Below are positions 12,964 to 30,122 of a stretch of DNA of 64,000 nucleotides, piece after piece. The notes beneath the pieces were generated by a model, which was given only the letters and a program-made list of their open reading frames with translations, was not told the origin of the DNA and ran no database searches. The stretch comes from a candidate division WOR-3 bacterium (GTDB lineage: Bacteria > Hydrothermota > Hydrothermia > LBFQ01 > DSFT01), in assembly GCA_039802865.1 (NCBI GenBank), contig JBDRXL010000001.1, positions 1,723 through 65,722 on the forward strand, read 5' to 3'. Made by a program: the position numbers and the translations under genes. The first letter of the stretch is position 1, and each line of letters starts with the position of its first letter.

Positions 12964-12965
12964 GT

Positions 12966-15156: not shown

Positions 15157-16022
15157 ATTATATTTGTGCTCCCATCTAAAGAAATTATAATATTATCAAT
15201 TAATCTTGTTTTTCCAAAGAAAACCGCTAAGGCTATTAAAACTTCCCCTTTAATTTCGCTTATTGGTTTTAAATTTTTTGTATCAACAATTTGAATATAT
15301 TGAATTTTAGCAAGTGGTGCATTTTCTATTATAAATTTTTCCATCTCACTTATTATTTTATTACTATCTCTTTCACCATTTTCAATTAAATTTTTAGCAA
15401 GCATTAGAGATTTATATAAAACTGTTGCTTGTTTTCTTTCTTCTGGATTTAAATATACATTTCTTGAAGACATTGCAAGTCCATCAGATTCTCTAATAGT
15501 TGGTCCTGGAATAATTGTAATATCTAAATTTAAATCTCTTACCATTCTTTTAATTATGAAATATTGTTGTGCATCTTTTAAACCAAATACTGCAATATGA
15601 GGTTTTACAATATTAAATAATTTAAGAACAACTGTTGCAACTCCCCTAAAATGCCCTGGTCTAAACTTTCCACAAAGCTCTTCATCCAAATTTTTCACTT
15701 CAACATATGTTGAAAAATCTTCTAAATACATTTCTTTTTCATCAGGAACAAATACAATATCAACATTCTCCTTTTCACATAATTTTAAATCTCTTTCCAA
15801 ATCTCTTGGATATTCCTTAAAATCTTCATTAGGTCCAAATTGTAATGGATTTACAAAAATAGAAACTACTAAAATATGTGATTTTTTTCGTGCTATTCTA
15901 AATAATGATAAATGGCCTTCATGTAAATAACCCATAGTAGGAACAAATCCTATGGTTTTACCTTCCCTTCTATAAACTTCTGACAAATCCATCATTTCAC
16001 CTATGCTTTTAATAACTTTCAT
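15153..16022 (-). CDS. panC: Pantoate--beta-alanine ligase
   Basis: Motif [15 protein letters not shown] and typical ~285-aa length. Stop overlaps the trpS start. Confidence 0.85.
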
Positions 16023-17119
16023 ATCTCAAGTTCATAAGAATTTATAAATTCTATATTATTGTTCAAAAGTATGTTTTCTAATTGTGGTGGAATAAGATAA
16101 CTAATCAAAATTCTAAATTGCCTCCCACCTATCTCATTACACTTCTCTATAAATTTATTAACTTCTTTTTGACTTAATCTCGTTTTCGCTTCACCTATAA
16201 TTATAAATTCTTCTCCATCTCTTTTGCCCTTTCCATATATATTCACCTCTATATATTTTTTTCCTAATTTTATATATCCTCTTTTAAGTGGTTCAATTAT
16301 CTCAATGTTATATTTTTCTTTTAGAAGTTTTGGCAAATATCTGATTGCTCTATCTTCAAGTAAATATCCAAAATTATCACTTAATGTTTCAAGTTTTTTC
16401 CTTGTTTGTTTATTAACTTTTTCTGACCTTTCAAAAGCTTTTGTTAAGTTGTTTATTCTTTCAGTTAGTTCAATTAAAGCCTTTTCTAATCTATCTATCC
16501 TTTCACCTTGTTCTTTTGTTATTTGTCTTAGTTCATTTACTGCTTGTCTTAATTCACTTACTGCTTGTGTTAATTCCATTACCGCTTTTTCTAATTTTTC
16601 TATTCTTTCTCCATGTTCTTTTGTTATTTCTCTTAATTCATTTACAGACTTTGTTAAACTTTCAATAGCTTGCCATATTCTTTGAAATTCTTCATTCATT
16701 CTTTGCTCCATTCTATCCATTCTTTGATTGCTTTCCTTAATAGCTTGTCTTAATTCATTTACTGCATGTGTTAGCTCAATTATTTTCTCACTATGCTCTT
16801 TACTTACTTCTCTTAATTCACTAACTGCTTGTGCTAAAACATTTACTCTTTCAGTTAATTCAATCAAAGCTTTCTCTAATATATCTATCCTTTCACCCTG
16901 CTCCTTACTTACTTTGGTTAGCTCAATTAAGGCCTTTTCTAACCTGTCAAACCTTTCATTATGAGCTCTATTTCCCTCCCTAATTATATCCCATAGCTCT
17001 TGTATCATTCTCCTATTTTGCTCGATCTCCTCCTTTATTATGATTTCTACAATTTCTCTTATGGAATCTCTATATTCTTCTGGAAGTTTTTCTAATATCT
17101 TGTTTATTTTTTCTATCAT
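16019..17119 (-). CDS. Coiled-coil protein with 35-aa heptad repeats and a C-terminal PD-(D/E)XK-like domain (resembles the DUF3782-type family)
   Basis: Repeats of [32 protein letters not shown]. C-terminal ...LEDRAIRYL...IEVNIYGK...IIIGEAKTR. Recurrent promoter motif directly upstream. Confidence 0.55.
16430..16960. repeat. Imperfect ~105-bp tandem repeats in coding DNA (five or more units)
   Basis: Visible nucleotide-level repetition (ttgttcttttgttatttgtcttagttcatttactgcttgtcttaattcacttactgcttgtg...) matching the 35-aa protein repeats. Confidence 0.5.
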
Positions 17120-17136: not shown

Positions 17137-19403
17137 TTTATTTTCCAATTATAAATAGCATTTGAGACTACAAAGATATCAGAAAGAGCCATTGCAAAAG
17201 CAGAATATATTGGATGAAAAGAAATATAAAAACCTGCAAAAGGTATAAGAACGATATTATAGAAAAATGTCCAAAATAAATTCCATCTCATTTTACTACT
17301 TGCAATTTTAGAAATTTCAAAAGCTTTCAAAATTCCATCAATATCACTCTTAATAAGAATAATATCTCCACTCTCTTTTACAATATCAAGAGCATTTGAA
17401 ACTGCAATTGATAAATCTGCTTTTGAAAGAACAATAGCATCATTAATTCCATCTCCTATATATAACACTTTATGCCCCTTTTCCTTTAAATTTTCTACAA
17501 ATTTTAATTTATCAAATGGACTTAAATTTGAATAAAATTCTTCTATTCCAAGTTCATTACAAACCTTTTTAACATTCTCATAACTATCACCACTTAAAAC
17601 AATTATTTTATAATTCTTCTTTTTAAGAATATCTATTAACTTTTTAGCATTTTCTTTTATTACATCTTCAAAAACAAGCTCAAAAGCTCCATATCCTTCA
17701 ATATAATAACCAATATCAAAATTAACATTTAAATGTTCTCTTTCAAATAATTTCCTATTTCCTACAATTACTTTTCTATTATTCACAATTCCTCTAATCC
17801 CCTCCCCTCTTATATATTCAAATTCTTTAACCTCGTAAAATTCTCCATTATAATTATTCAAAATTGCTTTTGAGATAGGATGCTCATTCAATTTTTCAAT
17901 TGATGCTAAATAAATTAAATGCTCATAAGGTATATTACTTTTTAATGTTAATTTTCCTTCTGTAAGTGTTCCTGTTTTATCAAATATAATAATATCAATT
18001 TTATTAGCTCTTTCAAGAGAAGCGGAATTTTTAATAATTATACCATTTTTAAGAGCTTTATTAATACTAACTGCTATAACAAGTGGAATAGCAATTCCAA
18101 TTGCACAAGGACAAGCAATAACAAGAACAGATATTAATTTCAAAAGTGCAATCTCAAAATTAGCTTTTATAAACCAAAATATAAATACAATTATTGAAAA
18201 TATAACAACAGTTGGAGTAAATATCGCTGATACTCTATCCGCTAAACTTTCAAGAACTGATTTTTCCCTTTGAGCATACCTTGAAATTTTTAAAATCTCA
18301 TTAAATAATGTATTACTTCCAACTCTTAATGCTTTTACTTTCAAATATCCTTCTTTAAGAATAGTTCCTTGAAAAACTTCATCATTTTTAGATTTTTTAA
18401 CAGGTTTAAACTCTCCACTAAAAGCACTTTCATCAACATAACCTTCTCCCTCAATTATAACCCCATCAGCAGGAACTAAAAATCCTTCCTTTACTATAAA
18501 AATATCTCCTTCTTTTAAATCACTAATATCAATTTCTACTTCCTTATTATTATCCAAAATAATAACTTTTTTAGGCTTTTGAACATATAAATTTCTTAAA
18601 TTTTCAAAAACTTTAAATTTTGCCCTTTCTTCAAAAAATTTTCCAATTAAAATAACACTTATTATAATACCACTTGTTGCAAAATAAACGTGGTGAAAAG
18701 TTTGTGGATTTATAAAATGTAAAAATGAACCAAAGAATGCAGAAAGGGTTCCAAGGGATATTAATACATTCATATCTAAATTTTTAGCTTTTAAAGATTT
18801 TATAGCATTTTTTATAAAGTATAAACCAAAATAAAATTGAATAGGTATTGTAAGAATAAGTTGAATAATAGGATGTAAAGGCATTGAAAATTCATGTAAT
18901 AAGAGTGGAATTGAAAGAATTGAAGAAAATAAAGCCCTTCTTTTTATATCATTTAACTCTTTCTTCCTTTCTTCATATTCAATATCAAATGCACTTTTAC
19001 CCTCACTTAATAAATGAGCCTTATATCCAAGTTCTCTAATATCCCTTAAAATATCATTAATATCTTTTAATGGAGAAATTTCTAACTTTAAAACTTTGCT
19101 TTCAAAATCATAATAATAAGATAAAATAGAACTTTCATTTATTAAATAATTCTCTAAATTTTTATCAAACATTGGAATATAAATTTCAACATTTTTCGTT
19201 AAAATTTCATATCCTATGCTTGATAATTCTTGCTTTGCCTTTTTGAAATTAAAATTCTTTTCAAACTCAACAATTAGCAATTCACTTGCTAAATCCACAT
19301 CTACAAACTTCACATCTTCATAACTTTTAATTACATTTTTAACTGTTCTTGCACAATTTGAACAAGTCATACCTCTTACAGGAAGTTTTATTATTTTTGT
19401 CAT
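17130..19403 (-). CDS. copA: Copper/heavy-metal translocating P1B-type ATPase
   Basis: N-terminal HMA motif GMTCSNCA, TM CPC motif ACPCAIG, phosphorylation motif DKTGTLT, and GDGINDA. Confidence 0.85.
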   Translation of the reverse strand: MTKIIKLPVRGMTCSNCARTVKNVIKSYEDVKFVDVDLASELLIVEFEKNFNFKKAKQELSSIGYEILTKNVEIYIPMFDKNLENYLINESSILSYYYDFESKVLKLEISPLKDINDILRDIRELGYKAHLLSEGKSAFDIEYEERKKELNDIKRRALFSSILSIPLLLHEFSMPLHPIIQLILTIPIQFYFGLYFIKNAIKSLKAKNLDMNVLISLGTLSAFFGSFLHFINPQTFHHVYFATSGIIISVILIGKFFEERAKFKVFENLRNLYVQKPKKVIILDNNKEVEIDISDLKEGDIFIVKEGFLVPADGVIIEGEGYVDESAFSGEFKPVKKSKNDEVFQGTILKEGYLKVKALRVGSNTLFNEILKISRYAQREKSVLESLADRVSAIFTPTVVIFSIIVFIFWFIKANFEIALLKLISVLVIACPCAIGIAIPLVIAVSINKALKNGIIIKNSASLERANKIDIIIFDKTGTLTEGKLTLKSNIPYEHLIYLASIEKLNEHPISKAILNNYNGEFYEVKEFEYIRGEGIRGIVNNRKVIVGNRKLFEREHLNVNFDIGYYIEGYGAFELVFEDVIKENAKKLIDILKKKNYKIIVLSGDSYENVKKVCNELGIEEFYSNLSPFDKLKFVENLKEKGHKVLYIGDGINDAIVLSKADLSIAVSNALDIVKESGDIILIKSDIDGILKAFEISKIASSKMRWNLFWTFFYNIVLIPFAGFYISFHPIYSAFAMALSDIFVVSNAIYNWKIKL

Positions 19404-19423
19404 AGCTTTAAAATTTTAAAGTT
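19404..19423. promoter_or_regulatory. Perfect 16-bp palindrome CTTTAAAATTTTAAAG between the divergent copA and 19422 genes, placed 2-4 nt from both start codons
   Basis: Sequence is cat AGCTTTAAAATTTTAAAGTT g ATG. One palindrome serves both strands. Confidence 0.5.
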
Positions 19424-19862
19424 GATGAAATTTTATTTTTTATCTTTTCTGATATTTACAATTCTTGTTTTGATATTTGACTTTCTTTACTTTATTTTAT
19501 TTAAGAAATTTAATATACTTATAATGATTTCAATAGCATTAGCTGTTGTTTCAACAATTGTTGTTTCCATTCTTTATAGAAAATATAGAATCCTTTCAGA
19601 TTTTGATATAAAAATTGATAATGAAGGGATATTTTTTAAAATTCCAAAGCCCATTGCAGAAGAACTTGAACTTGAAGTTCAAAAGGGTAAATATCTATGG
19701 AGACAAATAAAAAATGTCCAATATGATAGTGAAAATCATATAATTTATTTAGTTTTAATAAGCAAAATTAAAATCCCTATTCCCTTAGTAGGTTTAAGAA
19801 ATGAGCAAATTGAAGAAATTTTATCTCAAATTAGTAAATATACAAGTGTTGAGGTAGTGTGA
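19422..19862 (+). CDS. Membrane protein of unknown function
   Basis: Two N-terminal TM helices followed by a soluble C-terminal domain. Lies upstream of nusB. Confidence 0.4.
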   Translation: MMKFYFLSFLIFTILVLIFDFLYFILFKKFNILIMISIALAVVSTIVVSILYRKYRILSDFDIKIDNEGIFFKIPKPIAEELELEVQKGKYLWRQIKNVQYDSENHIIYLVLISKIKIPIPLVGLRNEQIEEILSQISKYTSVEVV

Positions 19863-19865
19863 ATT

Positions 19866-20357
19866 ATGATTTATCCTTTTCATGGCAGAAGACTTGCGAG
19901 GGCTATTGTCGTTGAAACAATATATAATGCAGAATTATTGAATTTAAATATAGATGAAGTATTTGAAAGTATTTCAAGGATGAAAAAAGAATATTTTATG
20001 TCTATAATAAATGAAATTAAGAAAGAAAAAATAAGGGAAAAATTTATAAAAGACTTGGAGAATTGGGATGAAATTTTAAATTTTTCAAAAGCAATTATAA
20101 ATAGCTATAAAGAAAATAAGGAAAAAATTGAGATGATTTTAAGAGAAAATATTAAAGGAGATTGGGATTATGAAAGGATATTTTTGTTGGAAAAGTCAAT
20201 TTTAAAAACCGCTGTCTCTGAACTATTAGCATTAAATACCCCTTATAAAGTAATAATTTCAGAAGCTTTAAGTATAGGAGATTATTTCGTTTCCCAGGAG
20301 GCAGTTAAACTTATAAATGCAATATTAGATGGAATTGTAAAAGGTTTAAAGGTTTGA
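19866..20357 (+). CDS. nusB: Transcription antitermination factor NusB-like
   Basis: N-terminal RRLARAIVVETIYNAEL and C-terminal ERIFLLEKSILKTAVSELL...ISEALSIGDYF match the NusB pattern. Confidence 0.65.
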   Translation: MIYPFHGRRLARAIVVETIYNAELLNLNIDEVFESISRMKKEYFMSIINEIKKEKIREKFIKDLENWDEILNFSKAIINSYKENKEKIEMILRENIKGDWDYERIFLLEKSILKTAVSELLALNTPYKVIISEALSIGDYFVSQEAVKLINAILDGIVKGLKV

Positions 20358-20378
20358 ATAACTTTAAAATTATCAACT

Positions 20379-21353
20379 ATGTTAACTTTATTCTTTATTT
20401 CTCAGAGTATAGAAATATATTCATCTCAAGAAGAATCTAATTATGAAGGAAAGGAAGAAACAAATGATTACTTATGGTTGTGGAAGAAAGGTAAGAAATA
20501 TACTATCTCAATAAGAATTCTTCAACCAGAAGGAGCTATTGTTGAAATTCAAAAAGAAAATAATCCAAATCCAATTTATAAAGCTGATATTCCTACAACA
20601 TATACAAAAACTAAAGTATCTTCGCGTGATGAAGGATTTTATAGAATTATTGTAAGTAAAGAAAATTATAGCTGGTCTAAGAAATTTGAAATTAAATCTG
20701 GGTATGAATATACTCTTTATGTAAAATCACTATCTACAAAGGAAGAAAAAGAAGAATATAATGATTATTATATTATAAGAAAACCATCATCAGAGACAGT
20801 TTTAAAAATAGTAGAACCAAAAGGAGCAAATGCTGAAATTTATAAAGAAAATTCCACAGTCCCTATTCATAAAAGTGATATTCCAACAAGCAAATCATTA
20901 AATGAAAGTGGATATTATAAAGTTATTGTAACAAATGAAAGTAGTAAGTGGGAAGGAAAGGTAGAAGTAAAGAAAAATTATGAGAATATATTATATGTAA
21001 AAAATCTGGCTCCAATTTCAAAACCCACTTTAAAACCAATAAGTGAAGAAAGTTTCAAAAGCCTTATTCAAAATCTAAAAAGTGAAATATCTGAATTTAC
21101 AAGAATAGAAATTTTAAAAACCGCTGTTAGTAAAAATTATTTTCTTGTAAGACATTTAGAAGAGATACTTGACCAATTTACTTCTGAGCTTAATAAAGAG
21201 GAGGTTGTAAAAATTGTTTATCCAAAAATTATAGATAAGGAAAATATACATCAAATTTTCTCAAAATTTACTTCATCCCTTTCAAAAGAAAATATAAGGG
21301 AATGGATTGAAAATTATGATAGTGGTAATGTTGAAAAGGAGGGATGGAAATGA
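20379..21353 (+). CDS. Protein with two PEGA-like beta-sandwich repeats (probably envelope-associated)
   Basis: Two internal repeats (GAIVEIQKENNP...YRIIVSKENYSWSKKFEIKSGYEYTLYVK and GANAEIYKENST...YKVIVTNESSKWEGKVEVKKNYENILYVK). Confidence 0.4.
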   Translation: MLTLFFISQSIEIYSSQEESNYEGKEETNDYLWLWKKGKKYTISIRILQPEGAIVEIQKENNPNPIYKADIPTTYTKTKVSSRDEGFYRIIVSKENYSWSKKFEIKSGYEYTLYVKSLSTKEEKEEYNDYYIIRKPSSETVLKIVEPKGANAEIYKENSTVPIHKSDIPTSKSLNESGYYKVIVTNESSKWEGKVEVKKNYENILYVKNLAPISKPTLKPISEESFKSLIQNLKSEISEFTRIEILKTAVSKNYFLVRHLEEILDQFTSELNKEEVVKIVYPKIIDKENIHQIFSKFTSSLSKENIREWIENYDSGNVEKEGWK

Positions 21354-21871
21354 GGAAAATTATTCTTTTGTTTTTAAGTAGTTGTGTTTCTGGTTATTAT
21401 GCAAAAGGTTCAAATGTGAATTTAGATTATTCAAAAAATTATAAAGTATCAATAATTCCACAATTAAAAAGTAATTATTTGAATGAAGATGATTTAAGAA
21501 AAGTTTATGAAGCATTTTATTTAGAATTATCAAGGATTAAGAATTTTACTATTGTTGAAAGAGAAAAAGTTGAGGAGATATTAAAAGAATTGAATTTTCA
21601 GTATTCAGGACTTGTAGATATTTCAACAGCAAAGGAATTTGGTAAATTAACAGGTGCAGATTTAATAGCAAGTTATGAAGTAATTTCAGCAAAACAGGAG
21701 ATGGATGGTTTTCGTGAAATTGTAATTTCAATTAAAATAATAAATGTTCAAACGGGAGAAATAGCCTATATTGGAAGGGGAAGAGGTGAAGGATATGATG
21801 ATAAAATTACGATTATAGATATGGCTGTTAGCAATTCATTACATACTTTAAAACAAACTTTTAAGAAATGA
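21344..21871 (+). CDS. Small lipoprotein with a CsgG/TolB-N/LpoB-like fold signature
   Basis: Lipobox LSSC. Motif LSRIKNFTIVEREKVEEILKELNFQYSG resembles the CsgG/FlgT-N family motif (F.VVER..L..IL.E..FQ.SG). SD sequence GGAGGG. Confidence 0.4.
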   Translation: MEMRKIILLFLSSCVSGYYAKGSNVNLDYSKNYKVSIIPQLKSNYLNEDDLRKVYEAFYLELSRIKNFTIVEREKVEEILKELNFQYSGLVDISTAKEFGKLTGADLIASYEVISAKQEMDGFREIVISIKIINVQTGEIAYIGRGRGEGYDDKITIIDMAVSNSLHTLKQTFKK

Positions 21872-22404
21872 AATATTTAATTTTATTATTAGTGTTAGGT
21901 TGTGCAAGTCAAACAAAAACAAAAAAATTAAATTATTTAGAAAATAATAAGAATTATAGAATTGCTTTAATATCATCAACAAAAAATCATAGCTCAATTT
22001 TAAATATAGTTGAAAATGAAATTGCTCAAAAACTATTAGAACTTAAAATATTTGAAGTAATAGAAAGGAAAGAGCTTGAAAAAGTATTAAATGAAATTAC
22101 ACTTACAAATGATACATTATCATTTGAGGAATTTGGAAAAGTAATAAATGCTGAACTATTGGGAATATATAATGTTGATGATTTTGTTAAGAAAAAGGAA
22201 AAAGTTTGCATTCCAGTAATATTTCATCATGAAATTATTTGTAAAGATGAAGATGTATTTGAAATAACAATTAGCTTTAAAATTATAGACTTGAAGACAT
22301 ATAAAGTTATATATGCAAATTCAGGTAGCTCAAAAGCTTATAATTTAGATGATTGTATAAAAAGTGCAATAGATGAAGTTATGTCAAAATTAGAAGGAGG
22401 TTAA
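21868..22404 (+). CDS. Small lipoprotein, paralog of the preceding gene (CsgG/TolB-N-like)
   Basis: Lipobox LGCAS. Motif LKIFEVIERKELEKVLNEITLT. 4-nt overlap with the upstream gene. Confidence 0.4.
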   Translation: MKYLILLLVLGCASQTKTKKLNYLENNKNYRIALISSTKNHSSILNIVENEIAQKLLELKIFEVIERKELEKVLNEITLTNDTLSFEEFGKVINAELLGIYNVDDFVKKKEKVCIPVIFHHEIICKDEDVFEITISFKIIDLKTYKVIYANSGSSKAYNLDDCIKSAIDEVMSKLEGG

Positions 22405-22407
22405 GCC

Positions 22408-23190
22408 ATGATGTTATTTTTATTTTTTCAAATGAGCAAGGCAGTTGAAACAATAAAGGATGGGAAAGTAGATTGGTCAAAGGGGATTGTAACTGCTAAG
22501 GGATATGGAGTTTTTGATATAAATGCAAAGAACGTAAATGCTGAAATTTTGAAAGCGCAAAGAGTAGCAGTTGTTGTCGCTCAAAGGAACTTACTTGAAA
22601 CAATAAAGGGTGTTTATATAAATTCTGAAACAATTGTTGAAGATTATATGTTAAAGAGTGATCTTATAGTTAGTAGGGTTAATGGAATTGTAAAAGGAGC
22701 AAGAATGATAGGAGAGCCTAAAATTGATAGACAAAATGGTATTGTAGAAGTTGAGCTTGCTGTTGATTTATATGGAGATAATGGATTAGTAAGTGCTATT
22801 CTTCCAGAAATTATAAAAAATACAAAAAAACAAAACTTAGATGATATTAAGGATAATCCAAGCTTTTCTGCACTTGTTTTAGATGGTTCAGGAACAAATA
22901 TAAAGCCATCACTATTTCCTAAAATTTATGATGAAAATGGAAACTTAATTTTTGATACTGCCTGGCTTATTGATGAAAATAATCCAAAAGCTCAAAGAGT
23001 TATTAAATTTGTTGAAAATTTAAATGAGATATTAAATGACCCAGAACTTAAAGATAATCCACTTGTAATCAAAATTAAATCTGTTTTAAATGGAAGGGAT
23101 ATTGTAGTTGATAAAGATAGTGCAAATAAAATAAAGTGGCTTAAAAAAGCTTGGGAGCTTGGCAAAAAAATTGTATTAACATTATTTTAA
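22408..23190 (+). CDS. LPP20/FlgP-like domain protein
   Basis: Pattern GYGV...A...A.VVAQRNLLETIKGVYINSETIVEDYML.SD.I.S.V.GIVKGA is typical of LPP20-family domains. SD sequence GGAGG. Confidence 0.4.
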   Translation: MMLFLFFQMSKAVETIKDGKVDWSKGIVTAKGYGVFDINAKNVNAEILKAQRVAVVVAQRNLLETIKGVYINSETIVEDYMLKSDLIVSRVNGIVKGARMIGEPKIDRQNGIVEVELAVDLYGDNGLVSAILPEIIKNTKKQNLDDIKDNPSFSALVLDGSGTNIKPSLFPKIYDENGNLIFDTAWLIDENNPKAQRVIKFVENLNEILNDPELKDNPLVIKIKSVLNGRDIVVDKDSANKIKWLKKAWELGKKIVLTLF

Positions 23191-23202
23191 AAGGAGGTAA
23201 TT

Positions 23203-24234
23203 ATGTTAATTTTTTTGATTTTACAAACAGAAAAAAGTATAATTGTAGAAGGAGTTTCATCTACAAATAATGTTAGCTTAGATGTAGCAAGAGATAGAGC
23301 AATTTCCGATGCTCTTAGAAATGCTGTTGAACAAGCACTTGGAACATATATTGAAAGTCAAACTATTATTGAAAATTATAATCTTATTGAAGATAATATA
23401 CTTTCAAAATCAAAAGGCTATGTTAAGAATTATAAAATTATTTCTGAAAAACAAGAGGATGGACTTTATAGAGTAAAAATAATAGCAATTGTAGATAATA
23501 AGAAAATTGAAGATGATTTATCATCATTAAAAATTCTTATTTTACAAAAAGAAAGACCAAGAATTTTAATTCTTGCAAATGAGGAATTCTTAGAAGATAT
23601 TTTAATTGAAAAATTTAGGGATAAGGAATTTCCAATTGTAGATCAAAATAAACTGAAAGAAAAATTAAAAAAGGAAGAGATAAGACTTATATTAGAAGGA
23701 GCAAAAGATAGTTTATTAGCAAGATATGCATTAAGGGAGGGAGCAGAAATTATTTTAATTGCTAAATATAATGAGAATAAGAAAAAAGTTGAGGGGTATA
23801 ATATAGATTTAAAAGAAGTTTCTATATCTGCAAGATTAATTGATCCAAGATCCGCAGAAGTATTAGCTTCTACAAGAATTGACAAATCTTATCCAAATAT
23901 AACCCAAACTATTAAAAATCAATTAGTAGATTCATTATTTAGTGTATTATTACCAAAAACAATAAAGCAATTTCAAGAAAATAATATAGTAAAAATTTAT
24001 GTTTATAATGTTAGTTTTGATGATGTTGGAAAATTAAGAGAAGTGCTAATTAATAATGTTAGAAAGGTTGATAAAATTATTTTAAGGGAATTTTTAGAAA
24101 ATAATGCTATTTTAGAATTAATAACTCCTGAAAATCCAACTTCAATAGCCCAAATTATAAAAAGTAATTTTAAAAATGTTGAAATTAGTGAAATAGGAGG
24201 AATGAATATATATGTAAGATGGAAAGGAAAATAG
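23203..24234 (+). CDS. Protein with an N-terminal LPP20/FlgP-like domain and a C-terminal extension
   Basis: Motif VARDRAISDALRNAVEQALGTYIESQTIIENYNLIEDNILSKSKGYVKNYKII. SD sequence AAGGAGG. Confidence 0.4.
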   Translation: MLIFLILQTEKSIIVEGVSSTNNVSLDVARDRAISDALRNAVEQALGTYIESQTIIENYNLIEDNILSKSKGYVKNYKIISEKQEDGLYRVKIIAIVDNKKIEDDLSSLKILILQKERPRILILANEEFLEDILIEKFRDKEFPIVDQNKLKEKLKKEEIRLILEGAKDSLLARYALREGAEIILIAKYNENKKKVEGYNIDLKEVSISARLIDPRSAEVLASTRIDKSYPNITQTIKNQLVDSLFSVLLPKTIKQFQENNIVKIYVYNVSFDDVGKLREVLINNVRKVDKIILREFLENNAILELITPENPTSIAQIIKSNFKNVEISEIGGMNIYVRWKGK

Positions 24235-24956
24235 CATTTATTAGTGATTTTGGAGAAAGTTTTTATGTAGGACAAGTAAAGGGAGTAATTAAATCAATAA
24301 ATCCAAATGCTGAAATTATTGATATTACTCATAATGTTCCAAAATTTAATATAAAAGCAGGTCAATTTGTATTATATAGCTCATATAAGTATTTTCCAAA
24401 GGGGACAATATTTTTAGTAGTTATTGATCCTGGTGTAGGTTCAAATAGGAAGGCAATTGCTATTGAAAGTGATAATTATTATTTTGTAGGTCCAGATAAT
24501 GGATTATTTGGTTTTTTGAAAAATTACAAAGCATATGAAATAGAAATCCCAAAGAATGCAAGTTATACATTTCATGCAAGAGATGTATTTGCACCTTTTT
24601 GTGCAAAATTATCAAAAGGCTATAATATAGAAGATATTGCAAAACCTATTGAAGATATCATTAAATTAGATTTTAGAGAAGTTAAAGTTTTTGAAAATTA
24701 TATAATTGGTGAAATTGTATTCGTAGATGATTTTGGAAATTTGATAACAAACATTGAATTTAATGAGAATTTTAAATATGTGGAGATTAATGAAATTAAA
24801 ATTAGTAAAAAAGTTAGAACTTATAGTGATGCAAAGAAGGGAGAATTAGTATTTTTAAAGGGTTCTTATGAATTTTTGGAAATTAGTATAGTTGAAGGAA
24901 ATGCAAGTAAAGTGTTAAATGTAAGTTTTGGAGAAAAGGTAAAAGTTTATATTTAA
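24219..24956 (+). CDS. SAM hydroxide adenosyltransferase family protein (DUF62 / fluorinase-like)
   Basis: N-terminus IAFISDFGESFYVGQVKGVIKSINP is characteristic of this family. About 245 aa. Confidence 0.65.
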   Translation: MERKIAFISDFGESFYVGQVKGVIKSINPNAEIIDITHNVPKFNIKAGQFVLYSSYKYFPKGTIFLVVIDPGVGSNRKAIAIESDNYYFVGPDNGLFGFLKNYKAYEIEIPKNASYTFHARDVFAPFCAKLSKGYNIEDIAKPIEDIIKLDFREVKVFENYIIGEIVFVDDFGNLITNIEFNENFKYVEINEIKISKKVRTYSDAKKGELVFLKGSYEFLEISIVEGNASKVLNVSFGEKVKVYI

Positions 24957-24960
24957 AGTC

Positions 24961-24976
24961 CTTTAAAATTTTCAAA
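24961..24976 (+). promoter_or_regulatory. Promoter-like motif CTTTAAAATTTTCAAA 3 nt upstream of the pgk ATG
   Basis: Recurrent motif. Confidence 0.4.
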
Positions 24977-24978
24977 CT

Positions 24979-26169
24979 ATGAAAAAACTTTCAATTATAG
25001 ATGTTCCAAAGGAAAGTTTAAAAAACAAAAGAATTTTTTTAAGGGTTGATTTTAATGTTCCTATTGAAAATAACAAAGTTGTAGATGATTATAGAATTAA
25101 AAAAACTCTTCCAACAATAAATTATTTAAAAGATAGTGGGGCTATTTTAATTTTAGCTTCTCATCTTTCAAGACCAAAAGGTATTGAGTTAAAATATTCC
25201 CTAAAACCAGTTTCAGAGCATTTAAGTAAATTATTAAATACACAGGTAAAGTTCTTTGATATTCAAGAAAATAATTATCGTGATTATTTAAGAAGGATAA
25301 AATCAGAAGTTTTAAAATTAAAGGAAGGTGATATTTTGCTTTTAGAAAATATAAGATTTGATGAAGGGGAAGAGAAAAATGATGAAAATTTAATAAATGA
25401 ATTATATAATTTTGGTGAAATTTATGTAAATGATGCATTTGGAACAAGCCATAGAAAACATGCATCTGTTTATGGTCTTGCTTTAAGATATAATTTGAGA
25501 CTTGCAGGAATATTAATGAAAAATGAAATTGAATATCTTTATAAAGTAAAGGAAAATCCTATTCAACCATTTTATAGTATTATTGGTGGGGTTAAAGTTT
25601 CTGATAAAATAAAAGTGCTTGAAAATCTTATAAAAGTTTCAAAGAAAATTCTTATTGGTGGAGCTATGGCATATACATTTTTAAAAGTTAAAGGAATAAA
25701 TGTAGGAAGTTCAATAATTGATGAAAAAAGCTTAGATTTTGCTAAAAGTTTCTTGGATAAATATAGTGAAAAAATTATTTTACCAATTGACCATATTGTA
25801 AAGAATTCTAAAATTATGAATGTTGAAGAAATAATGGAAGGATACATAGGAATGGATATTGGTAAGAAAACAATTGAATTATTTAAGCAAGAGCTGAAAG
25901 ATGCAAAAATGATATTCTTTAATGGACCACTTGGAAAATTTGAAGATAAGGAATTTAGTAGTGGAACATTTGAAATTGCTAAATTTTTAAGTGAGCTTAC
26001 AAAAAGAGGTGTAATTACAGTAATCGGAGGGGGTGATACAGTATCTGCAATTCATAGTGCTAATCTAAAAGATGAGGATTTTAGTCATGTATCAACAGGT
26101 GGGGGAGCAACCTTAGAGTTAATATCTGGTGAAGAAATGCCTGGAATAGAGGTTTTAAGCAATGTTTAA
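24979..26169 (+). CDS. pgk: Phosphoglycerate kinase
   Basis: Motif RVDFNVP and the conserved C-terminal GGGDTVSA / STGGGA motifs. Confidence 0.9.
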   Translation: MKKLSIIDVPKESLKNKRIFLRVDFNVPIENNKVVDDYRIKKTLPTINYLKDSGAILILASHLSRPKGIELKYSLKPVSEHLSKLLNTQVKFFDIQENNYRDYLRRIKSEVLKLKEGDILLLENIRFDEGEEKNDENLINELYNFGEIYVNDAFGTSHRKHASVYGLALRYNLRLAGILMKNEIEYLYKVKENPIQPFYSIIGGVKVSDKIKVLENLIKVSKKILIGGAMAYTFLKVKGINVGSSIIDEKSLDFAKSFLDKYSEKIILPIDHIVKNSKIMNVEEIMEGYIGMDIGKKTIELFKQELKDAKMIFFNGPLGKFEDKEFSSGTFEIAKFLSELTKRGVITVIGGGDTVSAIHSANLKDEDFSHVSTGGGATLELISGEEMPGIEVLSNV

Positions 26170-26515
26170 GAAAAAAAATGAGCATAATAGCGTAGATACA
26201 ATTATTGGGAGTAAAGGAATTTTTAGAGGAAATATAGAAGTAGATGGAGGAGCTTTAATAGATGGAAAAATAGAAGGAAACGTAAAAGTAAATGGAATTT
26301 TAATTGTTGGAAAGGAAGGATATATTATTGGGGAGGTTTGGGCAAGTGATTTAATAATTAGTGGCAAGATTGAGGGAAAAGTTTACATTAAAAATAGAGT
26401 TGAAGTTCAAAATACAGGAAAAATAGATGGAGAATTACATTGTAAAGTATTAGTTGTGGATGAAGGGGGATATGTAAACGGATTGATGGATATGAAATAT
26501 CAAGAGGTTGAATGA
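26162..26515 (+). CDS. Bactofilin-family cytoskeletal protein
   Basis: Beta-helical repeat pattern GxIxGxIxVDG..I.G.IEG.V.V.G.L.V with typical ~117-aa size. Confidence 0.7.
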   Translation: MFKKKNEHNSVDTIIGSKGIFRGNIEVDGGALIDGKIEGNVKVNGILIVGKEGYIIGEVWASDLIISGKIEGKVYIKNRVEVQNTGKIDGELHCKVLVVDEGGYVNGLMDMKYQEVE

Positions 26516-28191
26516 TTCTCTATATAATTCAAATGCCATCAGATATAGAAAAAGCCTTAATTTACAACTCAAAACCAGATAGTCAAATTTTAATTGATTT
26601 TAAGAAGAAATATCCAGATATAGAATGGGTATTTGAATTTTTATATCAAAGGGATTTTAAAAAATTTGATATTGAAAAGTTAATAAAACTTAATGCCAAA
26701 AAGCAATATATAACAGCAATTTTAAATATGTATCTTGAAAGCTTAAGCAAAAGGAATTTAAAAGATAGTTTAAGAAGTATTTATTTAAAATATAAAAATT
26801 ATTTTAATGCAAAAAGCTATGAAATTTTATATTCAATTTTAAAAGACAAAAATATCCTTTTAGAGCTTGCTAATAATTTTCCAAGCTCTGAAATAGTTTA
26901 TAAATCTATAAATGAGTTGAAATTATCTCAACTTACAAAAGCACAAATTTTATATTATAATGAGAAATATAAGGATTTAATAGAACAAATTCAACCAGAA
27001 TCTGCACTTTATTTTTATGTAGATGCTTTATCAAAGTTAAGTGATTTTAAAAAGGCTAGTGAGATATGTAAAAATTATAAAAATACAAATTTTAAAAAAT
27101 CAGATTATTTTTTTGAATGTGCATTAAATTTGTTAGAATATGGTGATACAATAACTGCTTTTGAATTTATTGATAGCTTATATGAATATAATCCTTATAT
27201 AGCGGTTAGGCTTGGAGGATATAATGCAATTGTTTCAAAAAGATATGACTTATTCTTTAATACATTAAAAGATACACTCATTGGTGAAGTTCAATTTATG
27301 AAAGCACTTGTTTATTATGTTAAAAGAGATTATATAAATACGATTATAACCCTTGAAAAAATTCCCAAAATTACAAATGATAACTTTGAAATTTCAAGAG
27401 CATATTATTGGCTTTATAAATTAACAAGAAATAATGATTATTTAATGAAAATTTACAAAACTCATCCAAATGGTTATTATGCTTTATATTCAAACTTCTA
27501 TCCAAAAATTATAGATACTACATTTTATGATGAAAGCAAATTTCAATTATATCAAAAGCCAATAATTTTAGAAATCCTTGGATTTAGAAGTGAATTTTGG
27601 AGATTTTTGAACGAAGAAAATAGAATTTATCTTATATATATGTTAAATAAAATTGGCTCATATGACCTTGCTCTTGATTTAGCTGAAAACTTAATATCTC
27701 CTTTTATTCCAAAAGATATTATTTTTATGGCTTATCCTACACCATATTTTCAAGAATTTTTAAATGCTAGTAATAAAAGTGGAATTGAAATAGAATTATT
27801 ATATGCAATTGTAAGGGAAGAAAGTAAGTTTAATAAGAATGTAGTTTCAAGAGCAGGAGCTATGGGAATAGCACAAGTTATGCCAGAAGATTTTAAACGC
27901 TGGTCAAGAAAACTAAATTTACCATATAAACCTTTTGATGTTAAAATAAACTTATTAATTGGAGCTATGCACTTTAAAGAATTCTTAGAAATGTTTAATT
28001 ATGATATTAACCTTACAATATGTGCTTATAATGCTGGTCCTAATGCTGTTAAAAGATGGTTAAGTGTTTTAGATTATAATGATACAGACTTATTTTTTGA
28101 GCTAATTCCATATAGAGAAACGAGAAATTATTATAGAAGGGTTATGAGAAGCTATCTTATGTATAAATATATATTTTCAAACTTCAAATGA
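26512..28191 (+). CDS. Lytic murein transglycosylase (Slt family) with an N-terminal helical domain
   Basis: SLT catalytic motif ESKFNKNVVSRAGAMGIAQVMP...AYNAGP. Confidence 0.7.
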   Translation: MILYIIQMPSDIEKALIYNSKPDSQILIDFKKKYPDIEWVFEFLYQRDFKKFDIEKLIKLNAKKQYITAILNMYLESLSKRNLKDSLRSIYLKYKNYFNAKSYEILYSILKDKNILLELANNFPSSEIVYKSINELKLSQLTKAQILYYNEKYKDLIEQIQPESALYFYVDALSKLSDFKKASEICKNYKNTNFKKSDYFFECALNLLEYGDTITAFEFIDSLYEYNPYIAVRLGGYNAIVSKRYDLFFNTLKDTLIGEVQFMKALVYYVKRDYINTIITLEKIPKITNDNFEISRAYYWLYKLTRNNDYLMKIYKTHPNGYYALYSNFYPKIIDTTFYDESKFQLYQKPIILEILGFRSEFWRFLNEENRIYLIYMLNKIGSYDLALDLAENLISPFIPKDIIFMAYPTPYFQEFLNASNKSGIEIELLYAIVREESKFNKNVVSRAGAMGIAQVMPEDFKRWSRKLNLPYKPFDVKINLLIGAMHFKEFLEMFNYDINLTICAYNAGPNAVKRWLSVLDYNDTDLFFELIPYRETRNYYRRVMRSYLMYKYIFSNFK

Positions 28192-29090
28192 AGGTGATAC
28201 ATATTATAAATAACATAGGTGGTGGAAGTGGAACATTTTTAAGAAACATTCAAAAAAAAGGTGAAATAGTTTGGGAAATATCAAAACAAAAACAATTACC
28301 AATAAAATTAAATGAAATAAAAGCAATTGTAATGTATGGTTATATTGAACATTTTGATTTTAAACCATTTAAAAATAAAAAGAAAATATATTACTTTCAT
28401 GGACTTAGAGCAATTTCAAGAAGAATGCTATTTAATAAATTTGAATTTAATCCAATACACTTATATAAATTTTATAAATTTAAAAATTGGCTTAAAAACT
28501 TTGATTGCTTTATAAGTGCAAGCTTTTCTTTGAGTAATTTAGTAAAAAAGTTTTATAATGTAGATAGTTTTGTAATTTATAATGGTTTAGATTTTAAAAG
28601 TATGCCTGAGATAAAAAGAGAAAGAAATGATAAAGTATTATTATGGATTGGAAGGTCTGCTTGGATTAAAGGTTTAGATAATTTTTTAAAATTAATGGAA
28701 TTATTACCAGAATATGAGGGATGGATTTTGGGGGTTGAAAATAAAAATTATAAAAATATAAAATTTTTTGGTTATCAAAAAGATGTTTATAATTATATTT
28801 CAAAAGCAAAAGCAGTAGTTATAACAAGTTATTATGAAGCTCTTTCTTATGTAACCTTAGAAAGTTTATATTATGGAGTTCCTGTTTTAAGCTTAAAGAG
28901 TGCAGGTGGAGTTTTTGAAATTTTACAAATTTTAAATAAATATGAGTGGATTTTTGATGATATATATCAAATGGCAGAATTTATAAAAAATAATGAAATT
29001 GAAGATTATAAGATAGATTATTTATTTAATGAGCTTTTTGATTTTGAAAGAAATTATTTAAGACTTAAAAAAATTATTGAAATGCTTTAA
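28188..29090 (+). CDS. Glycosyltransferase group 1-like protein (short)
   Basis: GT-B C-terminal half pattern (LLWIGRSAWIKG...E..S..TLES...G.PV). N-terminal half is weak or absent. Confidence 0.4.
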   Translation: MKVIHIINNIGGGSGTFLRNIQKKGEIVWEISKQKQLPIKLNEIKAIVMYGYIEHFDFKPFKNKKKIYYFHGLRAISRRMLFNKFEFNPIHLYKFYKFKNWLKNFDCFISASFSLSNLVKKFYNVDSFVIYNGLDFKSMPEIKRERNDKVLLWIGRSAWIKGLDNFLKLMELLPEYEGWILGVENKNYKNIKFFGYQKDVYNYISKAKAVVITSYYEALSYVTLESLYYGVPVLSLKSAGGVFEILQILNKYEWIFDDIYQMAEFIKNNEIEDYKIDYLFNELFDFERNYLRLKKIIEML

Positions 29091-29099
29091 AATTTTAAG
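29084..29099 (+). promoter_or_regulatory. Promoter-like motif GCTTTAAAATTTTAAG 3 nt upstream of the ATG at 29102
   Basis: Recurrent motif. Confidence 0.4.
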
Positions 29100-29101
29100 T
29101 T

Positions 29102-29587
29102 ATGAAAATCAAAACAATAGAGTTGCCTTCTATTGGAAAACGCTATGATTTTATAACAGAAAGTAATTCTAAATTTGTTCTAATAGATTATTTTTCTGGT
29201 ATTAAGGAGATTTATTTATTAAAGGATGGACAAACCATAGGACCAATTAAGTTAAATGAAGATGAAGCAGATCAATTAGCGGTTATATTATCTGGTGTAT
29301 TTTTGAAAGGTTTTATTGAAAAGCGAATAGATATAATTTTTAAAGATTTGGGAATTGAAAATGTGAAAATTGAAGAAGATTTTAAATGTATAAATAAAAC
29401 AATTGGAGAGCTTAAATTTAGAACAATAACTCAAACTTATATTATTGCTATTATAAGAGATGAAAAACCAATTATTATGCCAGAACCTTCTGAAAAAATT
29501 TTATTAAATGATATTGTTGTTTTGCTTGGAAATTTAGAAAACATAGAAAAAGCAATTAAATATTTAAAGGGATTAGTCATAGTTTAA
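29102..29587 (+). CDS. TrkA-C (RCK_C) domain protein, possibly a K+ transport regulatory subunit (KhtT-like)
   Basis: C-terminal TrkA-C pattern IGELKFRTITQTYIIAIIRDEKPIIMPEPSEKILLNDIVVLLG. Confidence 0.5.
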   Translation: MKIKTIELPSIGKRYDFITESNSKFVLIDYFSGIKEIYLLKDGQTIGPIKLNEDEADQLAVILSGVFLKGFIEKRIDIIFKDLGIENVKIEEDFKCINKTIGELKFRTITQTYIIAIIRDEKPIIMPEPSEKILLNDIVVLLGNLENIEKAIKYLKGLVIV

Positions 29588-29596
29588 AATTTTCAT
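29583..29596 (+). promoter_or_regulatory. Promoter-like motif GTTTAAAATTTTCA 2 nt upstream of the hpt ATG
   Basis: Recurrent motif. Confidence 0.4.
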
Positions 29597-29597
29597 T

Positions 29598-30122
29598 ATG
29601 TTCATCATAAGTGAGCAAGAGATAAAGGAAAAAGTTAAGGAAATTGCTCAAAGAATATCAGAGGATTATAAGGATAGTAAGGAATTAGTATTGATAGGGG
29701 TGTTAAAGGGGGCTTTTATATTTTTGGCAGATTTAGTAAGAGAATTGAAAGTAAATTGTGAAATTGATTTTATAAAAGTTTCATCATATGGTAAATCTAC
29801 GGAAAGTTCAGGAATTGTAAGGATTGAGCTTGATACAAGTATTGATATTGCAAATAAGGATGTTATTATTGTTGAAGATATTCTTGATACAGGATTAACC
29901 CTAAAATATATTAAAGAATTATTTTTAGCAAGAAATCCTAAATCCTTAAAAATTGCAGTATTACTTGATAAAATAGAAAGAAGGAAAGTAGATATTAAAG
30001 CGGATTATGTAGGTTTTGTTGTTCCTGATAAGTTTTTGGTAGGTTATGGATTAGATTTTGCTGAAAAATTTAGATATTTACCTTATGTAAGAGAATTATC
30101 TAAAACCGAATATTCTCCTTAA
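29598..30122 (+). CDS. hpt: Hypoxanthine-guanine phosphoribosyltransferase
   Basis: PRPP-binding motif VIIVEDILDTGLTL and typical ~174-aa length. Confidence 0.85.
   Translation: MFIISEQEIKEKVKEIAQRISEDYKDSKELVLIGVLKGAFIFLADLVRELKVNCEIDFIKVSSYGKSTESSGIVRIELDTSIDIANKDVIIVEDILDTGLTLKYIKELFLARNPKSLKIAVLLDKIERRKVDIKADYVGFVVPDKFLVGYGLDFAEKFRYLPYVRELSKTEYSP

Follow-up and report, generated by a model that had tools for sequence, protein, structure and literature searches.

Gene Organization at the Locus

The window analysed here, that is, the whole 64-kb stretch of DNA, comes from a candidate division WOR-3/Ca. Hydrothermales genome and carries five consecutive genes, designated G1 to G5 (Table 1). 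The five open reading frames reported in a preliminary description of the sequence were all recovered, together with their tight packing, which involves overlaps of 10 nt (G1/G2) and 4 nt (G2/G3) and gaps of 3 nt (G3/G4) and 12 nt (G4/G5). Shine-Dalgarno sites had also been attributed to the internal genes, and this holds for G2, G4 and G5 but not for G3, which presents only an ATGA overlap with G2; G1 has no such site. The AGGAGG of G2 leaves 7 nt to the ATG at 21350 but a single nucleotide to the one at 21344, which makes 21350 the probable true start of G2; the G1/G2 overlap would then be a 4-nt ATGA.

Table 1. Genes of the cluster and their Shine-Dalgarno sites (window coordinates).
Feature	Position	Strand	Length	Description
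G1 (P)	20379-21353	+	324 aa	putative accessory exported protein, lineage-specific
Shine-Dalgarno of G2, AGGAGG	21337-21342	+		within the end of G1; read off the sequence
G2 (C1)	21344-21871	+	175 aa	predicted small outer-membrane-type lipoprotein, LpoB/PelC/CsgG-N (TolB-N-like) fold
G3 (C2)	21868-22404	+	178 aa	lineage-specific G2 duplicate with a Cys-containing insertion
Shine-Dalgarno of G4, GGAGG	22396-22400	+		within the end of G3, 7 nt upstream of the start; read off the sequence
G4 (F)	22408-23190	+	260 aa	FlgP-type SHS2 domain plus Tp0624-D2-like domain
Shine-Dalgarno of G5, GGAGG	23193-23197	+		in the 12-nt G4/G5 gap, 5 nt upstream of the start; read off the sequence
G5 (T)	23203-24234	+	343 aa	SHS2, TolB-N-like and ferredoxin-like domains

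The position downstream of nusB, noted before, was corroborated (Pfam NusB, 1.8e-17). This gene ends only 21 nt 5' of G1, a SAM hydrolase gene starting at 24219 overlaps G5 by 16 nt, and no terminator-like sites were found in the interval 19300-30300, meaning that the five-gene unit is not delimited by spacing alone. For this reason the boundaries of the cluster were taken from relatives. In loci L010 and L011, genes on the opposite strand flank the P-C-(C)-F-T arrangement at either end, and neither nusB nor a SAM hydrolase gene is a neighbour. The locus is best explained as an operon in its own right, coding for exported proteins of the cell envelope in a diderm WOR-3 (Hydrothermales) bacterium.

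Domain Composition of the Encoded Proteins

The C proteins G2 and G3 are paralogous (29% identity, E=1e-13) and carry the CsgG/LpoB-type motif quoted before, FTIVEREKVEEILKE in G2 and FEVIERKELEKVLNE in G3. G2 matched the Pfam families CsgG (5.8e-10, profile positions 38-95 of 210) and LpoB (1.6e-9, positions 46-144 of 147), and G3 matched CsgG (3.5e-5), so that their earlier assignment to CsgG/LpoB-type families was right in outline; both proteins stay below the LpoB equivalog cut-off (36.5 bits vs 110.55). Lipoboxes are present in each (LSSC in G2, VLGC in G3), and the lipobox Cys is invariant across 22 C relatives, 20 of which match CsgG and 19 LpoB in Pfam. The best PDB match of the C family profile was PelC (1e-4), deposited as a dodecamer according to PDB entry titles; PelC and CsgG are both deposited as ring-shaped oligomers. 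The N-terminal fold common to LpoB, PelC, GNA1162 and CsgG is shared by G2, G3 and the middle domain of G5, with a lipid anchor in G2 and G3. C proteins have 175-200 aa, whereas a complete CsgG pore protein has at least 262 aa; judged by sequence length, G2 and G3 are too short for a CsgG pore. Pel or curli partner genes are absent. No match to FlgO was found for C, either in Pfam or among PDB sequences.

G4 (F) comprises a FlgP-type SHS2 domain with a beta-hairpin insert (about residues 27-120) and a C-terminal Tp0624-D2-like domain of rare fold (about residues 150-260). It had no match in Pfam, which holds no model for the F family. The best PDB sequence match of both G4 and G5 was Campylobacter jejuni FlgP, a basal disk protein (PDB 9hmf), recovered at 1.3e-8 with G4 and at 5.4e-16 with the F family profile, which spans the whole FlgP chain (lipoprotein signal, linker, SHS2 and hairpin); Vibrio FlgP was matched at 7.9e-5. 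In Foldseek searches with the AF2 model of G4 (pLDDT 78.9, pTM 0.73), the D1-D2 portion of Treponema pallidum Tp0624 (PDB 5jir) was the best structural match, covering both domains (E=8e-8, TMq 0.61), and C. jejuni FlgP was found at 1.6e-4. The Tp0624 D2 region was also detected by sequence with the F profile (E=0.01). The alignment of FlgP with F is gapless across the segment from the SHS2 helix to the next strand, which corresponds to the hairpin insert, a feature that correlates with ring formation according to Drobnic et al. (PMC12222027). No other part of the F family is as well conserved as this segment (AQRNLLE..G...T invariant), and its pLDDT is <50 in the monomer model, the low-scoring residues of G4 being 70-91. 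F proteins have 260-340 aa, and G4 lacks the lipobox Cys although most of them have one.

G5 (T) is predicted to contain an SHS2 domain of the FlgT_N/FlgP-like type (about residues 10-98), a TolB-N/PelC/CsgG-N-like domain (about residues 120-258) and a ferredoxin-like beta-alpha-beta-beta-alpha-beta-beta domain (about residues 260-343). The fold and succession of the first two agree with FlgT, and FlgT_N is found above the Pfam cut-off in G5 (1.1e-7) and in 20/20 T family members; the NCBI name of G5 is [quoted passage not shown]. The T profile, in turn, gives a weak sequence match to FlgT (E=0.27), no T match to Pfam FlgT_M or FlgT_C was obtained, and whole-chain TM-scores against FlgT are low, about 0.3; judged by secondary structure in the model, the C-terminal domain resembles a ferredoxin-like fold and not FlgT-C. 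T proteins of other lineages have ~400 aa. The LPP20/FlgP-type motif ascribed to G4 and G5 was located in both (AQRNLLETIKGVYINSETIVEDYMLKSDLIVSRVNGIVKGA and ALRNAVEQALGTYIESQTIIENYNLIEDNILSKSKGYVKNY, respectively), and the FlgP and FlgT_N matches bear out that assignment. G2/G3 and G4/G5 had been viewed as two pairs of paralogues; for the second pair this stands for the N-terminal domains, with 34% identity over the first ~100 residues only (E=4e-9), and not for the remainder.

G1, previously called a PEGA protein, has two tandem, beta-rich PEGA-like repeats of ~88 aa (about residues 28-118 and 125-212) that are 42% identical to each other (E=7e-21). Its PEGA match is, however, below the Pfam threshold (16.1 bits vs 20.8, E=0.011), and the significant domain, overlooked before, is a C-terminal DUF4476 (residues 221-310, 5.5e-17). 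The G1 family is small, with 5 clusters, and among the fetched loci it occurs in Hydrothermales and in L015, L085 and L087.

The N-termini of G1, G4 and G5 in the window species have only 8-12 hydrophobic residues and no charged n-region. Together with the loss of the lipobox Cys in G4, this makes the export and membrane anchoring of the three proteins uncertain; export would have to proceed via very short signal peptides.

A Conserved Three-Gene Core

The cluster had been proposed to be conserved as a unit, which is true of three genes rather than five: C (G2-like), F (G4-like) and T (G5-like), in fixed order. A relative of F is encoded in 234 species-level genomes, and in the 58 loci with enough flanking DNA around it, T is adjacent in 49, C in 47 and both in 45, with F standing alone in 7 (about one in eight). 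The three genes are usually separated by small gaps or overlap (medians of -1.5 and 5 nt). Carriers belong mostly to WOR-3 and Fermentibacterota, and the core spans two phyla. G1 and the second C copy are limited to close relatives: the latter was found in the window species and L010 only, the five-gene form in the window species and one close relative only, and other Hydrothermales present a four-gene form.

Some loci show additional genes. A TPR plus SLH-domain gene lies between F and T in L082 and L089, and in several WOR-3 genomes a strong LpoB match (2.6e-34), a TPR gene and a DUF1425 (YcfL-like) gene are found just 3' of the triad.

A Putative Non-Flagellar Scaffold

The lack of flagellar context mentioned in the preliminary description was upheld: flagellar and chemotaxis genes are absent from the 64-kb window, from L007-L009 and from the recurrent neighbour families. 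The published Hyd24-12 genomes are stated to "encode no flagella-related proteins" (PMC5030696), and C-F-T is present in one of them (L065) as well as in other Hyd24-12/Fermentibacterota genomes. The sole WOR-3 isolate, strain sy37, is a piliated diderm for which no movement was seen and whose description makes no mention of flagella (PMC12285271). For the window organism, the absence of flagella is read from 64 kb of sequence and from published work on lineages related to it.

Vibrio builds concentric rings from FlgT, FlgP and FlgO, which are tethered to the outer membrane by the two lipoproteins among them, FlgP and FlgO (bioRxiv 10.64898/2025.12.02.691832; PMC13626733). By analogy, the C-F-T products may form a non-flagellar, outer-membrane-anchored periplasmic scaffold built like this H-ring, a reading to which we give slightly better than even chances. 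In such a model, neighbouring F subunits would contact each other laterally via the conserved hairpin, the mode of assembly used by FlgP in the basal disks and H-rings of flagella, and T would dock onto the F array through its SHS2 and TolB-N-like domains. Lipid anchors on C, and in most lineages on F as well, would hold the array against the outer membrane on its inner side, resulting in a ring, disk or lattice that might stiffen this membrane or couple it to the cell wall, in the manner of the Vibrio H-ring although no flagellum is involved. For G1, the role of an accessory subunit particular to this lineage is proposed. Two observations were counted as links to the cell wall, namely the fusion of the F-type D1-D2 unit to an OmpA-like domain in Treponema (PMC5104382) and the TPR plus SLH-domain gene located between F and T in L082 and L089. 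The gene structure, homologies, folds, conserved three-gene order and missing flagellar context are established; ring formation is argued from homology and the retained hairpin, and oligomerisation, subunit contacts and the structural role are likewise presumed. Since the three-gene core is kept across two phyla, it probably builds an uncharacterised scaffold underlying the outer membrane from relatives of flagellar ring-building proteins. A toga anchor, as once suggested, has no basis, because the organism belongs to WOR-3 and not to Thermotogota.

The parallel with known systems is partial. The Vibrio proteins are flagellar, whereas the cluster has no flagellar context and its host lineages are described without flagella; F has an extra D2, T ends in a ferredoxin-like domain, and sequence identity to FlgT is about 7-11%. 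As C has no detectable likeness to FlgO, the FlgO/FlgP/FlgT comparison holds for only two of the three parts. C. jejuni FlgP forms concentric rings around the motor and has a PDB chain of 171 aa, in contrast to the longer, two-domain F proteins and to the window-species F devoid of the lipobox Cys. Tp0624 has a third, divergent OmpA-like domain, and treponemes possess periplasmic flagella; its authors noted that ~50 functionally uncharacterised proteins from other bacteria have D1-D2 but lack D3. Leptospira LipL46 (NCBIfam NF033164) aligns at profile positions 38-239 of 413 with G5 residues 10-195 (1.4e-8), at 33.8 bits against an equivalog cut-off of 400, and resembles T proteins elsewhere in length. 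Leptospira is flagellated, and we know of no established function for LipL46.

Alternative Roles

The cluster might instead be an accessory of polysaccharide or fibre export, with C acting like PelC/CsgG to funnel polymer to an outer-membrane pore. We regard this as unlikely, considering the short length of C and its limited CsgG match, the lack of a beta-barrel porin, synthase or polymerase among the scanned recurrent neighbour families, and the fact that, in relatives, the cluster is not accompanied by the GT and SLT genes found downstream here.

Marginally less credible is a role in regulating peptidoglycan synthesis, in which an LpoB-like C would reach across the periplasm to activate a penicillin-binding protein, with F and T as adaptors. 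The nearly full-length LpoB profile match of G2, the cell-wall genes of the window (PBP2/RodA at 6611-9324, bactofilin and SLT downstream) and the LpoB, TPR and YcfL-like genes 3' of the triad in WOR-3 agree with it. Against it stand the sub-threshold LpoB equivalog score and PBP and SLT neighbours that are not kept with the cluster, and it leaves unexplained the strongly conserved FlgP-type hairpin of F and the FlgT-like architecture of T. Just as doubtful is a collar around another envelope-spanning machine, for example a type IV pilus secretin, in place of a free-standing scaffold: the homologous flagellar proteins do ring a trans-envelope machine, and pili are known in both host groups (type IV pilus genes in Hyd24-12, pili seen on strain sy37), but no pilus or secretin family was found in the window or among the scanned recurrent neighbour families.

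A genuine flagellar module, that is, FlgO/FlgP/FlgT orthologues that encircle a flagellar motor, encoded at another locus, with an H-ring or basal disk, is highly improbable: the NCBI name and FlgT_N match of G5, the FlgP matches of F and the common dispersal of flagellar genes within genomes speak for it, yet flagellar and chemotaxis genes are missing from all the regions surveyed, Hyd24-12/Fermentibacterota carry the triad despite reportedly having no flagellar genes, the WOR-3 isolate is non-motile, FlgT_M, FlgT_C and FlgO are unmatched, and the extra D2 takes F beyond the solved FlgP chains (104-171 aa).

Conservation of the gene cluster

Relatives of the five ORFs studied (G1 to G5) were grouped as P (G1-like), C (G2- and G3-like), F (G4-like) and T (G5-like) genes. 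In a pattern scan that covered one genome per species, a G4 relative was detected in 234 genomes. The best 80 loci were retrieved, and their ORFs were called and sorted with profiles for the four families. C genes were reclassified with a length-restricted profile, as iterated HMMs from G2/G3 came to pick up the middle domain of T, and a word-index search with G5 gave 22 relatives, most T proteins being recovered by synteny instead. The order C-F-T was found in 43 loci, C-F-T-C in seven, P-C-C-F-T in seven and P-C-F-T in three (other Hydrothermales), with F standing alone in 10 loci and assorted other orders in 19. When only the 58 distinct loci with enough flanking DNA are considered, T accompanied F in 49/58, C in 47/58, both in 45/58 and neither in 7/58, with median gaps of -1.5 nt from C to F and 5 nt from F to T. 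Regarding the conservation as a unit of the five-gene envelope operon of the preliminary description, it holds for the widespread C-F-T triad, the full P-C-C-F-T order being limited to the window species and L010, the locus of one 87%-identical relative.

In L010 and in a second relative, L011, the P-C-(C)-F-T cluster is flanked on both sides by opposite-strand genes, and nusB, the SAM hydrolase and PGK genes are absent beside it. This means that the cluster moves as a unit and that its adjacency to nusB in the window is incidental.

The hosts were WOR-3, Fermentibacterota (Aegiribacteria, Sabulitectum, Hyd24-12) and a few MAGs labelled Deltaproteobacteria, Thermodesulfobacteriota or Bacteroidales. 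One locus (L043, JAWBPV010000053.1), filed as a Candidatus Aenigmatarchaeota MAG, carries a bacterial F-T-C cluster preceded by a CARDB and caspase/CHAT-domain protein, which is probably a binning error.

Gene layout and translation signals

The positions of the five ORFs, their overlaps of 10 and 4 nt and their gaps of 3 and 12 nt were all as initially described, and the two motifs quoted for the encoded proteins were found in them. Shine-Dalgarno (SD) sites, which had been attributed to the internal genes as a whole, precede G2, G4 and G5; G3 has an ATGA overlap with G2 as its sole join, and no SD was found at the start of G1. The proposed paralogy stands for G2/G3 (29% identity, E=1e-13) and, in the case of G4/G5, for the first ~100 residues only (34%, E=4e-9). 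The SD of G2 lies 7 nt from an ATG at 21350 versus 1 nt from that at 21344, so that the true start of this gene is probably 21350, where public gene calls also place it (173 aa).

G5 runs 16 nt into the gene that follows it, no terminators were found in 19300-30300, and therefore the spacing in the window cannot set the limits of the operon. The promoter scan was uninformative in DNA with a G+C content of ~26% (101 sites observed vs. 81 expected), and the Rfam and tRNA scans returned nothing in the region.

Coordinates of the features discussed (window positions, except for the two loci named in the second column)
Feature	Sequence	Positions	Strand	Remarks
Two ATPase ORFs	window	11960-13970		adjoining, overlapping
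366-aa protein	window	16019-17119	-	
nusB stop (TGA)	window	20355-20357		in frame with G1
G1	window	20379-21353	+	ORF
G1 N-terminus	window	20379-20420		MLTLFFISQS
SD of G2	window	21337-21342		AGGAGG
G2	window	21344-21871	+	ORF, 175 aa
G3	window	21868-22404	+	ORF, 178 aa
SD of G4	window	22396-22400		GGAGG
G4	window	22408-23190	+	ORF
G4 N-terminus	window	22408-22445		MMLFLFFQMS
SD of G5	window	23193-23197		GGAGG
G5	window	23203-24234	+	ORF
G5 N-terminus	window	23203-23240		MLIFLILQTE
Bactofilin, SLT and glycosyltransferase genes	window	26162-29090		
950-aa OmpA-domain protein	window	34860-37712		
TPR + SLH gene	L082	1151-2293		between F and T
TPR + SLH gene	L089	4772-5944		between F and T

G4 and its likeness to FlgP and Tp0624

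Pfam gave zero matches for G4, and no Pfam model reliably matches the F family. The family is large, an exhaustive profile search having collected 544 representative clusters with a threshold of E<=1e-30 and 4397 with one of E<=1e-3. The FlgP/LPP20-like assignment made from the sequence was borne out. Against solved FlgP chains, G4 itself matched those of C. jejuni (1.3e-8) and Vibrio (0.0035), and the F-family profile covered the whole C. jejuni chain at 5.4e-16. The AF2 monomer model of G4 (pLDDT 78.9, pTM 0.73) displays an SHS2-type fold, in which a helix runs across one face of a three-stranded sheet, and in Foldseek it retrieved C. jejuni FlgP (9hmf_A) at 1.6e-4 and, weakly, Lpp20. Some F relatives carry three to six tandem SHS2 repeats of the FlgP type (P0143, which with 1448 aa is the longest, P0148, P0156, P0161, P0163 and P0169).

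What holds the FlgP rings of Campylobacter together is a beta-hairpin, present as an insert after the SHS2 helix and before the strand that follows, and ring formation in the wider FlgP family correlates with this insert according to the authors (PMC12222027). The alignment of G4 with C. jejuni FlgP is gap-free through the corresponding segment. Conservation within the F family is highest in this segment, and in the monomer model it has a pLDDT below 50 (residues 70-91). Alignment, conservation and monomer disorder are together what would be expected if the segment took up its fold only between subunits.

The top Foldseek match of the G4 model was Treponema pallidum Tp0624 (5jir_A) over two domains (E=8e-8, TMq 0.61, 269 columns), with C. 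jejuni FlgP ranking second, and by sequence the F profile reached residues 116-255 of 5jir_B at E=0.01. The tandem D1 and D2 folds of the Tp0624 family are both present in the model. D1-D2 was described as a tandem unit of unknown function, with a D2 fold that had no structural analogue when solved, and it occurs without the OmpA-like D3 in ~50 other bacterial proteins (PMC5104382). A conserved F C-terminal tail docking into T, as the Vibrio FlgP tail does, was considered and dropped, because the last residues form a strand (254-258) in the model; the C-terminal strand of Tp0624 is an integral strand of D2 (PMC5104382).

G5 and its likeness to FlgT

G5 matches FlgT_N (PF16548) with 32.6 bits against a cut-off of 28.8, as do 20/20 T-family members, and it also gives a weak match to NCBIfam LipL46. 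Its model (pLDDT 81.3) has three domains and FlgT as top Foldseek match (3w1e, 2e-10), in a full-length alignment with a TM of ~0.3. Outside the N domain, the sequence similarity between T and FlgT is marginal. The C-terminal domain is modelled as a ferredoxin-like beta-alpha-beta-beta-alpha-beta-beta arrangement, and none of the 20 T-family members (0/20) matches Pfam FlgT_M or FlgT_C, the latter being the domain that docks the T-ring (MotX/MotY). G5 thus resembles FlgT in its first domain and probably in its TolB-N-like second one, and differs from it in the third.

The G2 and G3 lipoproteins

The CsgG-like assignment of G2 and G3 was upheld, both proteins matching CsgG and G2 matching LpoB as well. 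The match to CsgG is limited to profile positions 38-95 of 210. A CsgG-type secretion pore was therefore rejected, given the insufficient length of the two proteins and a match confined to the N-terminal part of the profile; a full-length CsgG with pore-forming transmembrane hairpins is not what G2 and G3 encode. The lipobox Cys is invariant (22/22 relatives). Among solved structures, the C-family profile had PelC as best match (1e-4), with GNA1162, LpoB and CsgG also among its top matches. The Pfam LpoB match is good at the domain level (positions 46-144 of 147), and the score against the LpoB equivalog TIGR02722 is 36.5 bits vs. a cut-off of 110.55. No C-family member matched the FlgO families of Pfam at E<=0.1 and no PDB chain named FlgO was found with the C-family profile at E<=10, meaning that C is not detectably FlgO-like by sequence.

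A strong LpoB gene (best E=2.6e-34) lies ~0.6-4 kb downstream of T in the WOR-3 loci L018, L021, L022, L023, L027, L028 and L053, subsets of which also have genes for a TPR protein and a YcfL-like lipoprotein of the DUF1425 family, as well as a small unknown gene. This LpoB/DUF1425 set after the triad recalls the enterobacterial lpoB-ycfL neighbourhood.

G1 and the short N-termini

The G1 family is tiny (five clusters). G1 ends in a DUF4476 domain (5.5e-17, 62.3 bits against a Pfam gathering score of 22.5), also matched by the G1-like genes of L015 and L085, which the preliminary description had missed in calling G1 a PEGA protein. Pfam PEGA scores 16.1 bits vs. the required 20.8 (E=0.011). 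G1 contains two tandem ~88-aa repeats, 42% identical (E=7e-21), with one P(E/K)GA motif each, making a divergent PEGA-like fold possible.

The N-termini of G1, G4 and G5 have only 8-12 hydrophobic residues without a positive n-region, and their Hydrothermales orthologues present the same short hydrophobic N-termini (alignments A1 and A2). Export of the three proteins is nonetheless likely, because normal signal peptides or lipoboxes are seen in more distant relatives from other lineages. In the F family, a Cys at the end of the signal peptide is found in most A2 members outside the Hydrothermales clade and is missing in the window G4, six other Hydrothermales sequences, P0073 and P0096, the thermophilic Hydrothermales clade having lost both lipobox Cys and linker. 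The seven codons between the nusB stop and the ATG of G1 (ITLKLST) align with the charged signal-peptide n-region of the L010 orthologue (MRFKIFTMNLMTFILIGQS), and there is no ATG, GTG or TTG among them. One possibility is that G1 starts at a non-canonical codon, for instance the ATA at 20358, and another is that half of its signal peptide has been lost.

A possible scaffold in hosts described without flagella

The preliminary description had noted the lack of flagellar context, and this was corroborated. There are no flagellar or chemotaxis genes within the 64-kb window and no flagellar families among the neighbour families scanned; the genes that recur beside the triad (TldD/PmbA, signal peptidase I, FG-GAP, ABC ATPase and TPR proteins) have unrelated housekeeping or envelope roles, and are joined in some WOR-3 genomes by the LpoB, TPR and DUF1425 set. 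None of the Hyd24-12 genomes encodes a flagella-related protein according to Kirkegaard et al., who describe these bacteria as diderm with type IV pili (PMC5030696). C-F-T is present in a Hyd24-12 genome (L065). Strain sy37, the sole WOR-3 isolate, was reported to have inner and outer membranes and pili, with no motility observed and flagella never mentioned (PMC12285271). G4 thus has no flagellar gene context in the window and belongs to host groups described without flagella, and gene context and literature on these groups led us to reject FlgO/P/T orthologues serving a flagellated organism. The toga or sheath anchor first suggested was dropped because the organism belongs to WOR-3 and not to Thermotogota.

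FlgP and FlgT are known as additions to flagellar motors that give the stator ring a greater width and the motor an anchor in the outer membrane. In Vibrio, 26 copies of FlgT form a ring, which the lipoproteins FlgP and FlgO, as concentric rings, anchor to the outer membrane; the FlgP counts differ by study, 26 subunits having been built in one case and 58 copies each of FlgP and FlgO resolved in the other (PMC13626733; bioRxiv 10.64898/2025.12.02.691832). The alignment, conservation and monomer disorder of the hairpin segment are the basis for proposing an outer-membrane-anchored F/T/C array, in which F subunits would be joined to one another via their hairpins, T subunits would dock on the F array and the C lipoproteins would keep it attached to the outer membrane. 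Such an array may couple the outer membrane to the cell wall, to which two independent links exist at the gene level: in Treponema, D1-D2 is fused to an OmpA-like domain, and in L082 and L089 a TPR plus S-layer-homology (SLH) gene lies between F and T. The L082 MAG is labelled 'bacterium' and that of L089 Thermodesulfobacteriota, and L084 and L086 have a similar-sized ORF at the same position. More tentatively, and with the odds rather against it, FlgP-, FlgT- and LpoB-like subunits could form a free-standing ring, disk or lattice beneath the outer membrane of WOR-3 and Fermentibacterota, which would represent the kind of pre-existing scaffold recruited for flagellar H-rings and basal disks.

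The domain families themselves were already known, as was the FlgT_N domain of G5, which its NCBI name cites. Descriptions of the fixed C-F-T module, of its presence in phyla without flagella and of the link between FlgP-like domains and Tp0624 D1-D2 were not found in the searchable literature. A fixed module of a FlgP-like protein, a FlgT-like protein and a small lipoprotein, kept in phyla described without flagella, is a concrete candidate for an ancestral non-flagellar use of FlgP/FlgT parts, testable via phylogeny and imaging. It suggests that two poorly known phyla have an envelope structure not yet characterised, and gives context to the orphan D1-D2 unit of a syphilis protein, its interest lying chiefly in the origin of flagellar disks and H-rings and in the envelope biology of uncultured phyla.

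Source genome and other genes of the window

MAGs named candidate division WOR-3 contain identical proteins, and close relatives are found in Candidatus Hydrothermales. The remaining window genes are ordinary housekeeping and envelope genes (PBP2/RodA, Mur ligase, lipoprotein signal peptidase, amidases and a large OmpA-domain protein), and an Omp85 gene lies on the same contig, just past the window end. The 950-aa protein, which combines CarboxypepD_reg repeats with an OmpA domain at its C-terminus, is a candidate for tethering the outer membrane to the cell wall. After PGK, on the same strand and with overlapping stops and starts, lie genes for a bactofilin, a 559-aa SLT-domain lytic transglycosylase and a glycosyltransferase, which do not accompany the cluster in relatives. 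In the 366-aa protein, which has only faint Pfam matches, the coiled-coil segments are highly repetitive (ELREVSKEH..) and precede a globular C-terminal part. Finally, the two ATPase ORFs both match SMC_N/AAA_23-type families and are called differently in some assemblies; they may represent a split or frameshifted gene.
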